Shown here: positions 18,390-28,581 of the stretch, piece after piece
Layout: every line of letters begins with the position of its first letter
How positions within the stretch are numbered: position 1 is the first letter of the stretch
From: Jatrophihabitantaceae bacterium
GTDB lineage: Bacteria > Actinomycetota > Actinomycetes > Mycobacteriales > Jatrophihabitantaceae
Assembly (NCBI GenBank): GCA_035765515.1
Contig: DASTXN010000171.1
Span: 1,885 to 65,884 of the forward strand
DNA length: 64,000 nucleotides
Direction: 5' to 3'
The notes under the pieces: generated by a model
The model's input: the letters and a program-made list of their open reading frames with translations, nothing else
Databases searched by the model: none
What the model was told of the DNA's origin: nothing
Translations under genes and position numbers: made by a program

Positions 18390-21300
18390 ATGCCCTCGCC
18401 CGTTCGAGTCGGGGCAGGGGGTGCATTGGTGCCGGACATTCGCATCCAGCTCACCGGGACCGTCGGAGTGTTCGGCTGTCCGGATGCCGACCCCGGGCCG
18501 CCGGTCGGAGGTCAAGCTCTTCTGGTGCTGGGCATCCTGGTGCTGGAGCGGCATGCCGCGATCGCCCGCGAGCAGCTCGCATCTCTGGTGTGGCCGGACG
18601 GGCTGCCGCGCACCTGGGAACCTTCGCTGCGCGCATTGGTCAGTAAGGTGCGCGCGTTGTTCGGCGCGGTCGGAATCACCGATCCGCGCATCGTTTCCGC
18701 GGCGTTCGGCTGCTACCAGTTGCGGCTGCCGCCCGGCGTAGACGTGGACGTCGAGGCGGCCGCACGCACGCTCGCCGCCGCACGCGAGGCCGAGCAGACC
18801 GGCGATCACGACGCCGCCGCGCGGCTTGCCGGGCAGGCGAGTCAGGTGCTGCGCCGGCCGCTGTTGTCCGGTGTCACCAGCGGCTGGGTGGAGGTGCGCC
18901 GCGCCGAGCTGCGCGGTGACCTGCTACGTGCCCTGACGCTGCAGGCGGCGGCCACGATCGCCACGGGTCGGCCGCGGGAGGCCGTCCCGCCGGCAGCGGA
19001 GGCCGCGGCATTGGAGCCGTTCGACGAATCGGCGGCACGGTTGTTGATCACGGCGCACAGCCTGGCCGGTAATCGGGCGGAGGCGTTGCGTGTCTACGAC
19101 GCGCTGCGGCACCGGCTCGCTGACGACCTCGGTGTCGATCCGGACGCCGAGACGCAGGCCTGCTACCTGGCGCTGCTTCGCGAGACCGCGCCGGCTGCGC
19201 CACGCGCCGCCGCAGCACCGCCCCGGGCGCCGTTGCCGCCGGCGCTCGACCCGCGAGGCTCCCTCTTCGTCGGGCGCGTCACCGAGCTGGACTGGGTCCG
19301 GCGGCACTGGCGGGACGTGCTCGACGAGACCCCGGTCCTTGCGTTGGTGTCCGGCGAGGCGGGCATCGGAAAGACCCGGTTCGCCGCTGAGTGCGCGCAG
19401 GTCGTCTCCGACTCCGGTGCGCGCGTCCTCTACGGGGGCTGCGAGCAGGACCTGACGTACCCCTTCGAGCCGTTCGCCCGCGCGCTCGCGGCATACGCCG
19501 ACTCGCTTCCGGCGGATGACCTGACAGATGCGCTCGGCTCCCTCGCCGGCGAGCTGACGCGGCTGCTGCCGGGCCTGGCTGACCGGGTGCCCGGTCTCGC
19601 GCCTGCGGCGGCGACCGACCTGGCCACCAGCCGGTCCTGGCTCGTCGACGCGGTGTGCCAGGCGATCTCGGCGGCGGCGCGGCGAAGCCCGTTACTGCTT
19701 GTCATCGACGACCTGCAGTGGAGTGGTCCGGCGACCCGGCAGGCCTTGCGCCGGTTGGTGGAGACCGTCCACACCGGACGGATCATGGTGATCGGGACGT
19801 GGCGTGGCGATGACTACCACGCCGCGCTCGGCGACGTCATCGGCCGGGCGCGAGCGGCGTGGACGGTGGCGGAACTGCCGCTGTCCGGCCTGGGTCGCGA
19901 CGAGGTCGCCGAACTCGCGACCGGCCTCCAACTGCCAGCCGCCGTTGCGGACGAGACGTACCGGCGCAGCGACGGCAACCCGCTGTTCGTCGGCCAACTG
20001 CTCCGTCACGTCGCCGCCGGCCACTCGGTGGACGACCTGCCGGGTACCGCGCGGGACAGCGTGTTCGCCACCGTTGCGGCCTTGCCGCCCGAAGTGCACA
20101 CGGTGCTGTCCGCAGCAGCGGTCGTCGGCGACGAGGTGGACGTCGGGCTGCTGGTGGCGACGACCGGCTTGCCCGCGGACACCGTGGTCGACGCAATCGA
20201 CGCCGCGCTCGGCAGCACCCTGCTCCGCGCCGACGTCGATGTGCCTGATCGCGTTCGCTTCACACACCACCTGGTGCGCTCGGCGCTGTACGACGAGCTG
20301 TCGGCCCCGCGCCGGTTGCTGCTGCATCAGCGGGTAGCGCACGCGCTGGAACGCCGGCCGGACGCGCAGTCACGCGTCATCGAACTCGCGGAGCACTTCT
20401 TCGCCGCCGCCCCGCTGCTCAGCGAGAGCGACGCCGCGATCCGGTACGGACGGCTGGCCGGCGAGCGGGCCGCGGCGGCGCTGGACTTCGAGCACGCCGC
20501 GCAGTACTACCGGCGCGCGCTCGACCTGCTCGGCGATGCCCCCGATCTCGCCGCGCGCTGTGACCTGCGCCGTGCCTGCGGCGAGGCGCTCACTCGGCTG
20601 AGTCATCCGGCACAGCGGCAGTACCTGCTGGACGCGGCGGCGGACGCACGCGCGCTCGGCGACGCCGACCGGTTGGCACGAGTCGCGCTCGCCTTCGATA
20701 TCCGCACCTATCTGGCCACGCGTGACGAGGAACTCGTCGCGCTGCTCGAGGAAGCGCTCGACGCGCTCCCACGCCAGGCCACCGCGACCCGTGGCCGGTT
20801 GCAGGGCATGCTCGCCGTCGCGCTCATGTGGACTCCGGCGGAAGCCACCCGGCGCGTTCAACTCGTCGCCGAGGCAACCGAGACGTTGCGCGAGACGGCA
20901 GACCGCGCGGCCCTGGCGGCGCATCTCATGAACACCTACTTCACCCTGAGCAGCCCCGGCAGCGCGCGGTACGGACTCGATGTCGGCGACGAGCTGATCA
21001 TGCTCGGCGACGAGCTGAACCTGGCGGCCGCGCGGTGGCAAGGCCACATGGTGCGCTGCGACGCGCTTGCCCTCTCCGGCGACCTGGCGGCCTCCGAAGG
21101 CGAACTCGCGCTCGCTGAGACCAGCGTCGGGCTTACCCGCGAGCCGCGCAACGAGTTCGAGACCCGCTGCCGGCGGGTGTGTTTCACGATCCTGACAGGC
21201 GACGTCCGGGAGGCCGAGGCCCAGGCCCTCGCGCTCCACGAGTTCTCCCGGAGTGTCGACATCGGCGAATTGGTGATCGCCGCCACGCAAGCCGGCCAAC

Positions 21301-21815
21301 TGCTGGCGATCCGCGACATGCAGGGCCGTGCCGGCGAGCTCGTCGGCATGCTGGACATGATCGTCGAGCAGACGCCCGAGCTGCCACAGGTACTCGGCAC
21401 GGCTGCGTTCACCCGCGCGAGCGCGGGCCAGCGTGAGCGTGCCGCGGCGGCGCTGGACGGATACCTGCACGACCTCCGCGAACCGGTGCCGGGCGACGCG
21501 ATGTGGCTGGCACATATCGGATACGCCTCCCGGGCGGCCGCGCTGCTCGGCCACGCCGCCGGAGCGGAGCGCGTCTACGAGTTCCTGCGCCCGTATTCAG
21601 GCAACTGGGTGTGGATCCTCTCCTCCTGCGGTGGGCCGGTCGACCTGCATCTCGGCCTGTGCGCGGCGACTGCGGGCCGCCGCGACGTCGCGCTCGGGCA
21701 TCTCGAGCGCAGCATCGCGCAATGCCGCCGGAACCGGGCTCCTTACTGGCTCGCGATGGGTTCTGCGCAGGCCGACCGACTGCGCCCGGGCGAGCCCGCG
21801 CGCACGGCGCTGTAA
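18390..21815 (+). CDS. SARP/AfsR-family regulator (OmpR-type winged helix + BTAD + P-loop ATPase + TPR-like C-terminal region)
   Basis: wHTH LVLERHAAIAREQLASLVWPD. BTAD NRAEALRVYDALRHRLADDLGVDPDAETQ. Walker A GEAGIGKT and Walker B LLLVIDDLQW. Long helical repeat tail. An ATG at 18390 is in frame with TTG 18363. Confidence 0.8.
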   Translation: MPSPVRVGAGGALVPDIRIQLTGTVGVFGCPDADPGPPVGGQALLVLGILVLERHAAIAREQLASLVWPDGLPRTWEPSLRALVSKVRALFGAVGITDPRIVSAAFGCYQLRLPPGVDVDVEAAARTLAAAREAEQTGDHDAAARLAGQASQVLRRPLLSGVTSGWVEVRRAELRGDLLRALTLQAAATIATGRPREAVPPAAEAAALEPFDESAARLLITAHSLAGNRAEALRVYDALRHRLADDLGVDPDAETQACYLALLRETAPAAPRAAAAPPRAPLPPALDPRGSLFVGRVTELDWVRRHWRDVLDETPVLALVSGEAGIGKTRFAAECAQVVSDSGARVLYGGCEQDLTYPFEPFARALAAYADSLPADDLTDALGSLAGELTRLLPGLADRVPGLAPAAATDLATSRSWLVDAVCQAISAAARRSPLLLVIDDLQWSGPATRQALRRLVETVHTGRIMVIGTWRGDDYHAALGDVIGRARAAWTVAELPLSGLGRDEVAELATGLQLPAAVADETYRRSDGNPLFVGQLLRHVAAGHSVDDLPGTARDSVFATVAALPPEVHTVLSAAAVVGDEVDVGLLVATTGLPADTVVDAIDAALGSTLLRADVDVPDRVRFTHHLVRSALYDELSAPRRLLLHQRVAHALERRPDAQSRVIELAEHFFAAAPLLSESDAAIRYGRLAGERAAAALDFEHAAQYYRRALDLLGDAPDLAARCDLRRACGEALTRLSHPAQRQYLLDAAADARALGDADRLARVALAFDIRTYLATRDEELVALLEEALDALPRQATATRGRLQGMLAVALMWTPAEATRRVQLVAEATETLRETADRAALAAHLMNTYFTLSSPGSARYGLDVGDELIMLGDELNLAAARWQGHMVRCDALALSGDLAASEGELALAETSVGLTREPRNEFETRCRRVCFTILTGDVREAEAQALALHEFSRSVDIGELVIAATQAGQLLAIRDMQGRAGELVGMLDMIVEQTPELPQVLGTAAFTRASAGQRERAAAALDGYLHDLREPVPGDAMWLAHIGYASRAAALLGHAAGAERVYEFLRPYSGNWVWILSSCGGPVDLHLGLCAATAGRRDVALGHLERSIAQCRRNRAPYWLAMGSAQADRLRPGEPARTAL

Positions 21816-21821
21816 CGCCAC

Positions 21822-21865
21822 GGCTGCGATTCGCCTGCGCTCGGCCTGCATCCGGCTCCTACGCT
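21822..21865 (+). promoter_or_regulatory. three direct heptamers G(G/C)CTGC(G/A) at exact 11-nt phasing plus a TACGCT -10-like hexamer (SARP-box-like promoter)
   Basis: Heptamers start at 21822, 21833 and 21844. TACGCT at 21860-21865 is 8-9 nt after the third repeat. RBS GAGGGAG at 21887-21893 and ATG at 21900. Confidence 0.45.
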
Positions 21866-28014: not shown

Positions 28015-28451
28015 ACGCGCGACGCAATATCGGCGCACTCCTCGCGGCGATGGTCGCGGGACTCGCGCTGACCGCCTGCAGCGGCCACCAGGCGGCCGGC
28101 AAACTGGATCTGGGCTCGGCGCGAACGCTGTCGTGCCCGGCCGCGATCCCAGCAGCCAAGCGGCACCCAGAAGCGGTACTCACCCGAGTCTTCGCGGTGA
28201 CCGGGCCGAAGCAGGCGAGCTACACGCTCGGCTGGCAGCTCGTCCCGTTCCGCGGCCCCGACCGCACCTACCAGCTCGGGAAGGACGGCAACCTGCTCGC
28301 GCTCCAGCCCGTCGGCGGTGGCAAACCGCTCGGCTACGGCACCGGCGCGGTCACCGTGTCCGGCAATCCGAACGCCGGGACGATTGATGCGGTCGTCCGG
28401 CTCACCACCGGGCGCAAGATCGCGGTCCACGGCGCCTGGCGCTGTGGGTAG
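28011..28451 (+). CDS. small lipoprotein (unknown family)
   Basis: ATGA start/stop overlap with the upstream gene. Signal plus lipobox MNARRNIGALLAAMVAGLALTAC. 146 aa. Confidence 0.7.
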   Translation: MNARRNIGALLAAMVAGLALTACSGHQAAGKLDLGSARTLSCPAAIPAAKRHPEAVLTRVFAVTGPKQASYTLGWQLVPFRGPDRTYQLGKDGNLLALQPVGGGKPLGYGTGAVTVSGNPNAGTIDAVVRLTTGRKIAVHGAWRCG

Positions 28452-28508
28452 CGGCGGACACGCAACGGCGAGGACCATAGCCAGCCGAGTTGTGCCCCGG
28501 GCTGAAGG

Positions 28509-28581
28509 TGCCCCCGGCAGGGATCGAACCTGCGACCAATCGCTTAGAAGGCGAGTGCTCTATCCGCTGAGCTACGGGGGC
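28509..28581 (-). tRNA. tRNA-Arg (anticodon TCT)
   Basis: Reverse complement folds as a cloverleaf: acceptor GCCCCCG/CGGGGGC, D arm GCTC-AGCGGATA-GAGC, anticodon loop CTTCTAA, T arm GCAGG-TTCGATC-CCTGC, discriminator A. 73 nt. CCA is not encoded. Confidence 0.9.

Follow-up and report, generated by a model that had tools for sequence, protein, structure and literature searches.

How very large proteins are displayed on the cell surface without sortase signals is poorly understood in monoderm Actinomycetota, and almost nothing is known about such display in the abundant uncultured Acidimicrobiia of soil and peat. This question is raised by a locus in a 64,000-nucleotide stretch of DNA (on contig DASTXN010000171.1; the whole stretch is called the window) from a member of the Jatrophihabitantaceae (Actinomycetes, order Jatrophihabitantales). 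In it, the gene for a large SARP-type regulator (SARP, Streptomyces antibiotic regulatory protein) is followed by three co-oriented genes that code for a secreted giant built of immunoglobulin (Ig)-like repeats, a secreted all-α-helical protein, and a small lipoprotein. The initial annotation, made from the sequence alone, had taken the three secreted genes as one unit coupled to the regulator and the whole as a system of a type that it did not recognise. What do these three genes make, and is the SARP their regulator? The best overall explanation is that they encode an exported, envelope-associated complex from one recurrent operon which, in this lineage, is activated by the SARP, and we give this explanation a probability of about 0.5. 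The module is a defined and conserved candidate of three or four genes, among them two protein families without described relatives, and with it SARP-type regulation can be put to the test outside antibiotic biosynthesis.

The three genes almost certainly form a conserved operon. Wherever flanking DNA sufficed for gene order to be assessed, the same order, namely, a Big_1 giant, then a helical protein or two, then a small protein with a membrane tether, was found in about 11 non-redundant loci from metagenomes or metagenome-assembled genomes (MAGs). These loci are L002/L031, L004, L005-7, L008, L028, L011-L014, L029/30, L032, and a contig with 83% identity; the order was taken from gene calls and Pfam content and, for L002, L004-L008, and L011-L014, homology was established by tblastn. 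The giants in these loci are 1516-1696 aa long and align end to end at 35-40% identity, N-terminal region included, and identity to relatives is 34-41% for the helical proteins and 40-49% for the small proteins. Intergenic gaps are 14-140 nt, and in several loci the last two genes overlap by 4-11 nt. A second helical gene, a paralogue of the first that was overlooked initially, is usual in the relatives; a single helical copy is found in the window lineage, L013, and L014. This neighbourhood check for co-occurrence with Big_1 giants upholds the grouping of the three secreted genes as a unit, the order being kept across distant relatives. The named genomes found in a GTDB scan are all MAGs, mostly of Acidimicrobiales/Acidimicrobiaceae from peat and soil, with some Actinomycetes. 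Of the loci with the module, those with a name are from Acidimicrobiales MAGs and from the Jatrophihabitantaceae lineage of the window. No described equivalent of the module was found in a literature search, and the combination of a Big_1 giant with helical protein(s) and a small β-domain tether seems not to have been described before. Both the helical and the small proteins are undescribed families, and the view that the system is an unrecognised one stands, with no characterised match in domain, structure, or literature searches.

In the window (Table 1), the four open reading frames (ORFs) were reproduced at the coordinates first assigned to them, and the start of the helical-protein gene matches the NCBI call P0001 (507 aa, 100% identity, 100% coverage). 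Alternatives for the regulator start are a TTG at 18363 and the gene call of L008, which is 1129 aa long. The regulator gene stops with TAA at 21813-21815 and 84 nt separate it from the ATG of the giant; the stop codon of the giant is followed after 16 nt by the GTG of the helical-protein gene, with a GAGGAG sequence within this gap; and an ATGA overlap at 28011-28014 joins the helical-protein and lipoprotein genes. The spacer, the gap with its ribosome-binding site, and the overlap were all re-read where they had been placed before. Judged by the ATGA overlap, the lipoprotein gene is translationally coupled to the helical-protein gene. No intrinsic terminator was found 3' of the SARP gene or 3' of the lipoprotein gene.

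Table 1. Features of the locus in window coordinates
Feature	Position	Strand	Remarks
DUF1059 gene, 65 aa	18062..18259	minus	divergent from SARP gene; PF06348 E=6.3e-5, 23.6 bits vs 21.1 cut-off
SARP-box-like site B	18297..18329	minus	pattern search built from site A only
Large SARP-type regulator, 1141 aa	18390..21815	plus	wHTH (weak match), BTAD, AAA_16/NOD ATPase, and helical C-terminal half
SARP-box-like site A, putative SARP-dependent operon promoter	21822..21865	plus	read in sequence and by pattern search
Secreted giant, 1524 aa	21900..26474	plus	signal peptide, non-Pfam N-terminal region, 10 Ig-like repeats
GAGGAG ribosome-binding site of helical-protein gene	26480..26485	plus	
Secreted all-α-helical protein, 507 aa	26491..28014	plus	signal peptide, cysteine-flanked hairpin, hendecads, conserved C-terminal domain
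Lipoprotein, 146 aa	28011..28451	plus	lipobox LTAC, ~105-residue all-β domain
tRNA-Arg(TCT)	28507..28581	minus	neighbour, outside the system

The giant begins with a signal peptide (about residues 1-31) followed by a conserved region (residues ~32-380) that has no Pfam match and carries the invariant Cys59 and Cys267; an LPHPAEPY motif is found in the N-terminal region of the giants. Pfam detects Big_1 in 10 stretches (226 bits) and Invasin_D3 in 8 stretches (152 bits), and a repeat hidden Markov model (HMM) that we built ourselves resolves 10 full Ig-like repeats over residues 381-1507. This agrees with the original description of the protein as a signal peptide and mostly invasin-type Ig repeats. 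Residues 1-420 had no Pfam match even at E<=5 and thus no outer-membrane β-barrel translocator was detected, and a PDB profile search with an alignment of the N-terminal region returned nothing meaningful. It had been noted that the module has neither a sortase motif nor a C-terminal anchor, and this was confirmed: there is no LPXTG-type motif near the C-terminus of the giant and no C-terminal transmembrane (TM) segment or hydrophobic window in the giant, the helical protein, or the lipoprotein. A bacterial α-2-macroglobulin was considered as an identity for the giant and rejected, the sole MG4 match overlapping the Ig repeats and no A2M or TED family being present.

The giant is like the rod of invasin and intimin or a Gram-positive repeat adhesin, yet it is outside both classes because it has no β-barrel translocator and no LPXTG. 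With the inverse autotransporters intimin and invasin it shares export by a signal peptide and a tandem Big_1/Invasin_D3 rod with a domain outside the repeats at one end. In contrast to them, no inverse autotransporter β-barrel, LysM domain, or C-type lectin tip was detected in it, its unique domain is N-terminal and not C-terminal, and it would depend on separate genes for a helical protein and a lipoprotein. The host group of the window is not known to have an outer membrane. With the sortase-anchored Gram-positive adhesins (MSCRAMM, Rib, SasG) the giant shares the idea of a long Ig-like stalk on a monoderm surface, but it lacks their LPXTG, C-terminal TM segment, and charged tail. Therefore, anchoring of the giant would be non-covalent, through partner proteins.

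The helical protein of the window has an N-terminal hydrophobic segment (residues 20-43), a T/P-rich linker, and an N-domain (residues 70-143) with the family motif PPAPxGFA. Two invariant cysteines, Cys173 and Cys244 in window numbering, then bracket a hairpin made of an amphipathic helix and a hydrophobic helix. The hairpin is followed by a NIDNTT motif and a Q/T/S-rich hendecad region, which is about 190 residues long in the window protein. The name hendecad coiled coil, given to this protein at the outset, is supported by a hydrophobic periodicity of 3.64 residues over positions 245-430, about 11/3, and by an a/d/h pattern when the residues are set in rows of 11. The most conserved part of the family is the C-terminal domain, in which LPASxGGYLDxxPVGVQ is followed by three short helices (in the window protein the motif continues as ...AAGQY..AY..AYQ). 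The 11/3 periodicity and the Q/T/S/N-rich helices are shared with hendecad and polar-core stalks such as tetrabrachion, trimeric autotransporter stalks, and the HR1 of viral fusion proteins, but the helical protein is similar to these in composition only and shares no domains with them. Searches of Pfam, NCBIfam, PADLOC, and PHROGs assigned it to no real family and returned only compositional coiled-coil matches, including Apolipoprotein and the tails of ZorA, LmuB, and JetC (those from PADLOC at E 6e-5 to 2e-3); when the module was scanned with PHROGs, matches were confined to the Ig repeats. A PDB profile search likewise gave compositional coils only (coronavirus HR1 at E~1e-3 and a trimeric autotransporter fragment at E=0.9). 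A phage or plasmid element or an anti-phage defence system was also considered and rejected, for tblastn with the helical protein found no match in phage and plasmid collections and PADLOC gave only coiled-coil-type matches.

A word-indexed search of 5.8 billion sequences found only 11 relatives of the helical protein, and an exhaustive HMMER profile search found 397 family representatives at E<=1e-3, 83 of which are at E<=1e-30. Some members carry an extra N-terminal Ig-like domain. The length of the coil from the second invariant cysteine to the C-terminal motif is, in P0004-P0097, either 192-196 or 75-84 residues with none intermediate, so that the two classes differ by about 116 residues. 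The long-coil class goes with Big_1 giants and the small protein. The short-coil class, of which few loci were examined (L016, L021, L023, and L027), occurs as tandem pairs beside other giants, in which GGYWLVASDGGIF repeats at the C-terminus are combined with β-propeller-like repeats and with segments of PKD-like and IPT/TIG-like type. No homologue of the small protein was found in the examined short-coil loci; therefore, it cannot be what the conserved C-terminal domain pairs with in every case. Partnership with giant secreted proteins may be a general trait of the helical family. One of its members lies on a high-GC contig (GC content at third codon positions ~0.9) of a MAG labelled Bacillota (L022), and this label may be a binning or labelling error. 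The KD19 hydrophobicity of the internal helix is ~0.9-2.1 in the short-coil subfamily and up to ~3.1 in some relatives. The bracketing cysteines and the only moderate hydrophobicity in the short-coil subfamily lead us to regard this helix as one buried in, or at the core of, a stapled hairpin and not as a membrane span. A true TM span, which would place the coil in the cytoplasm, is disfavoured on the same two grounds.

The small protein has a lipoprotein signal, MNARRNIGALLAAMVAGLALTAC, with the lipobox LTAC at residues 20-23, which fits the pattern [LVI][ASTVI][GAS]C, and Cys23 as the candidate lipidated residue. Going by this signal, lipidation is expected to keep the protein at the outer face of the cytoplasmic membrane. 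The claim that the lipoprotein is the only obvious membrane tether of the module holds, the lipobox being present and the other two proteins having no C-terminal TM segment. Relatives have either a lipobox or an N-terminal TM anchor in its place; the tether is conserved and its chemistry is not. The family has a domain of about 105 residues bounded by the near-invariant Cys42 and Cys145. AlphaFold2 (AF2) predicts for the small protein a compact all-β structure of 9 strands with a mean confidence score (pLDDT) of 84.9 that exceeds 90 for 104 residues. A Foldseek search with this model found no solved structure below E=0.14, and the best matches in shape were designed small β-barrels (TM-score ~0.35-0.45). 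No family was found for the small protein in Pfam, NCBIfam, PADLOC, or PHROGs, a PDB profile search gave nothing meaningful, and all 47 clusters of the family that a word-indexed profile search found are annotated as hypothetical. Each of the three proteins thus carries an export signal, that is, a signal peptide in the giant and the helical protein and a lipobox in the small protein. All three also have paired invariant cysteines, as would fit an extracytoplasmic location. It is likely that the three proteins make up an extracytoplasmic complex.

As to the regulator, the initial annotation gave its architecture as winged helix-turn-helix (wHTH), BTAD, ATPase, and TPR. The BTAD (PF03704, 88.6 bits against a cut-off of 22.1, residues 119-263) and the AAA_16 ATPase (84.5 bits against 32.6) are above cut-off. 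The wHTH is weak, with Trans_reg_C at E=0.015 and 15.8 bits against a cut-off of 26.2; the wHTH region is covered by the alignments to the AfsR and BagI/FevR models of NCBIfam, which begin at residue 42-47. The TPR match is not significant (TPR_7, E=0.47), and the ATPase-TPR region of TIGR03903 aligns over residues 293-723. An AfsR orthologue is rejected by the score of 52.5 bits with NF053617, for which the cut-off is 1430; the regulator is a large SARP with an AfsR-like architecture and not AfsR itself. It shares with large SARPs of the AfsR/PimR type the BTAD, the NOD-type ATPase, a helical C-terminal half, and, by the weak match, the wHTH, and its candidate operator is like theirs in having direct repeats phased by 11 bp, with a -10 element at a distance of 8 bp. 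Unlike theirs, its candidate target is neither a biosynthetic cluster nor afsS, but a surface-protein operon. In M. tuberculosis, EmbR sets a precedent for cell-envelope genes controlled by a SARP. No polyketide synthase or nonribosomal peptide synthetase genes were found among the ORFs scanned across the window, the other scanned ORFs being ordinary metabolic, transport, and hydrolase genes, and the earlier statement that no biosynthetic genes lie nearby is borne out.

The SARP adjoins the module only in the window, in L008 from the same species, in L028 (92% helical-protein identity), and in the relative with 83% identity. Other modules have varied neighbours. In L002/L031 a recombinase lies upstream of the module and a HisKA_3/GerE two-component system lies downstream of it, in L005 an MST/DinB gene is beside the module, and in L032 no regulator is present among the called neighbours. 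Therefore, the SARP is no core component of the module and the coupling between the two is lineage-specific. The description of the module as SARP-coupled is valid for the window and these three relatives, where it is strengthened by an operator of the SARP type, but not for distant modules. A LAL-type regulator with AAA_16, TPR, and LuxR HTH is encoded beside a related module in the short-coil locus L021 (995-3898) and an NB-ARC/HTH_77 regulator with a GerE protein is encoded near the fragmented locus L033 (11303-13678). This small sample hints at recurrent control by signal-sensing STAND-type ATPase regulators.

In SARP targets, direct repeats are spaced by 11 or 22 bp and the one at the 3' side is 8 bp away from the -10 element (PMC10936776), and three heptamers separated by 4-bp spacers have been documented for PimR, a large SARP (PMC3367932). 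Site A, in the spacer between the SARP and giant genes, has three 11-bp direct repeats, GGCTGCGATTC, GCCTGCGCTCG, and GCCTGCATCCG, at 21822-21854, and from the last 8-nt core it is 8 nt to a -10-like TACGCT (21860-21865). This triple pattern is unique in the window and occurred in none of 100 shuffles. The repeats were read by eye and confirmed by pattern searches; the automated repeat search did not report them, 11-bp repeats being too short and degenerate for it. The spacer of the window has 94% identity to that of L028, compared to 78% for the 3' end of the SARP gene, 90% for the giant gene, 88% for the helical gene, and 78% for the lipoprotein gene. RNA structure was rejected as the cause of this conservation of the 84-nt spacer, its fold (z=+0.8) not being unusual. 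When a two-repeat pattern derived from site A was run against the 64 kb, it gave 3 matches at 2 loci where 0.23 were expected. Site B, thus found, has two 11-bp direct repeats, GACTGCGATCC and ACCTGCGCTCC, on the minus strand (18329-18308), less than 60 bp from the SARP start codon, and an 8-nt gap followed by a -10-like TACCGT (18302-18297). It is upstream of the divergent gene for the 65-aa DUF1059 protein. The core, the 8-nt gap, and the TACNNT geometry are common to both sites and, as sequence patterns, both fit the published operator rule. Judged by these patterns, direct control of the operon by the SARP is likely, if less so than the complex itself. The SARP probably also activates the DUF1059 gene directly through site B, and this suggests a small SARP regulon that flanks the regulator on both sides.

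Based on these findings, we propose the following mechanism. The small β-domain lipoprotein would be the membrane tether. The helical hendecad protein, or proteins, would be an elongated connector that is held by the lipoprotein and that holds or organises the Ig-repeat giant, with the disulfide-stapled hairpin at one end and the conserved C-terminal domain, as an interaction domain, at the other. Invasin is about 18 nm long for five domains and, scaled from this, the 10 Ig-like domains of the giant would form a projection of about 35-40 nm with a conserved N-terminal head, displayed without sortase. Its function, by analogy only, would be adhesion or cell-surface scaffolding; an adhesin or fibril role is a tentative assignment which, in our estimate, falls slightly short of even odds. 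The SARP of AfsR architecture would bind the three 11-bp-phased repeats, which overlap the -35 region and are 8 bp from the -10-like hexamer, and so activate the operon, with a transcription start predicted near 21872, and the same SARP would act on the divergent DUF1059 gene via site B with the same geometry. A wider proposal is that the helical and small families are an undescribed sortase-independent mounting system, in which the long-coil proteins serve Big_1 giants and the short-coil proteins serve β-propeller/PKD/TIG giants, and that the regulator is the first large SARP with a surface structure as its direct regulon; this we regard as doubtful.

Several points weigh against the complex and its regulation as we picture them. 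The source organism is represented by nothing but a MAG, and none of the hosts has been cultured. Most modules are without the SARP, and distant members of the helical family pair with other giants and do so without the small protein. The AF2 model of the helical protein, built from 11 sequences, is all-α but poor, with a pLDDT of 50, and the strongly hydrophobic internal helix of some relatives could serve for membrane insertion instead. On the regulatory side, a single site served to define the repeat motif after the fact, and the operon may be transcribed by read-through from the SARP gene, no terminator having been found between the SARP and giant genes.

Among the alternatives, the one that survives best is that the product of the module is no ligand-binding adhesin but has a structural role in the envelope, as a layer or a matrix scaffold; it could be a sheath, a lattice like that of an S-layer, or a partner of the cell-wall polysaccharide. 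In the related loci L003 (3712-13681) and L029 (10565-20555), the module abuts a cell-wall polysaccharide cluster with genes for PIG-L, Polysacc_synt, a GT2 glycosyltransferase, a sortase, LMWPc, DUF4012, and Bac_transf, and this polysaccharide and sortase neighbourhood fits a cell-envelope role. It is present in these two loci only, however, and elsewhere the neighbours are unrelated. That the giants are acidic (pI 4.1) and T/A/S/G-rich would also suit a structural layer, as would the coil length, which is fixed in each subfamily and suggests a measured structural element, but no SLH or other cell-wall-binding domain was detected in Pfam scans. We consider a structural layer unlikely.

Less likely again is that the helical proteins resemble pore-forming toxins, that is, binary or tripartite α-pore-forming toxins of the ClyA/XaxAB type, in which case the giant would bind cells and the lipoprotein would serve for immunity or docking. 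The helical protein does share an elongated all-α form, a central hydrophobic element, and frequent tandem paralogues with the ClyA family and with XaxAB/YaxAB, its central hydrophobic helix lies beside an amphipathic one, paralogue pairs are tandem in the relatives, and there are weak matches to apolipoprotein-like 11-mers, P0007 having a precomputed PF01442 match. On the other hand, these toxins are not known to have the conserved C-terminal domain or the predicted disulfide-stapled hairpin of the helical protein, and the two invariant cysteines that bracket the hairpin would suit a stable stapled fold. Nothing similar to solved pore-forming toxins was found in sequence or fold; the Foldseek search gave nothing at E<0.29 and is uninformative, the query being the model with a pLDDT of 50. 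The KD19 range of the short-coil helix shows that membrane insertion is not family-wide, and the genomic context has no hint of a toxin, secretion, or immunity system.

The initial annotation had also pointed to the tRNA-Arg gene as an island boundary, from which it would follow that the block is carried by a genomic island with tRNA-Arg(TCT) as its integration site. The tRNA gene is where it was placed, its 3' end being 55 nt from the lipoprotein stop and not 58 nt, a trivial difference, and such proximity together with the patchy distribution of the module over two actinobacterial classes is what speaks for an island. However, the scanned genes on both flanks are not integrases and the 3' end of the tRNA gene is not repeated within the 64 kb, in agreement with the earlier remark that there is no integrase or att duplicate. 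There is also no compositional shift, the GC content being 0.67-0.72 in the block and 0.67-0.73 in the window. The tRNA gene is adjacent to the module only in L008, which is from the same species. L028 and the relative with 83% identity have a different downstream gene, and synteny stops right after the lipoprotein gene. The island is thus largely refuted and very improbable. That the genes are unrelated neighbours, with their adjacency and the repeats arising by chance, is refuted by gene-order conservation and is hardly credible, since about 11 lineages with protein identities of 35-48% keep the synteny, stop codons overlap with start codons, and the triple repeat is absent from all shuffles.

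A few other features of the window were recorded. A further giant of 1400 aa is encoded at 11128-15330 on the plus strand, 3 kb upstream of the SARP gene, and has RCC1 repeats, He_PIG, three IPT/TIG domains, and Big_9. Just past the tRNA gene, an ORF for a single-stranded DNA-binding (SSB) family protein (28698-29372) and an ORF for an ABC-F ATPase (29218-31197), both on the plus strand, overlap by about 150 nt in different frames, and probably one of their start codons is mis-set. At 32292-34935 on the plus strand, the gene for an extracytoplasmic function (ECF) sigma factor precedes and overlaps that for a 687-aa Beta_propel (PF09826) protein, and the two may be a sigma/anti-sigma-like pair. 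Finally, two divergent genes code for giant GH35 β-galactosidases with NPCBM domains (55648-60063, minus strand, and 60019-63969, plus strand) and, with the gene for a GH27 α-galactosidase at 51599-53890, they look like a glycan-degradation cluster.

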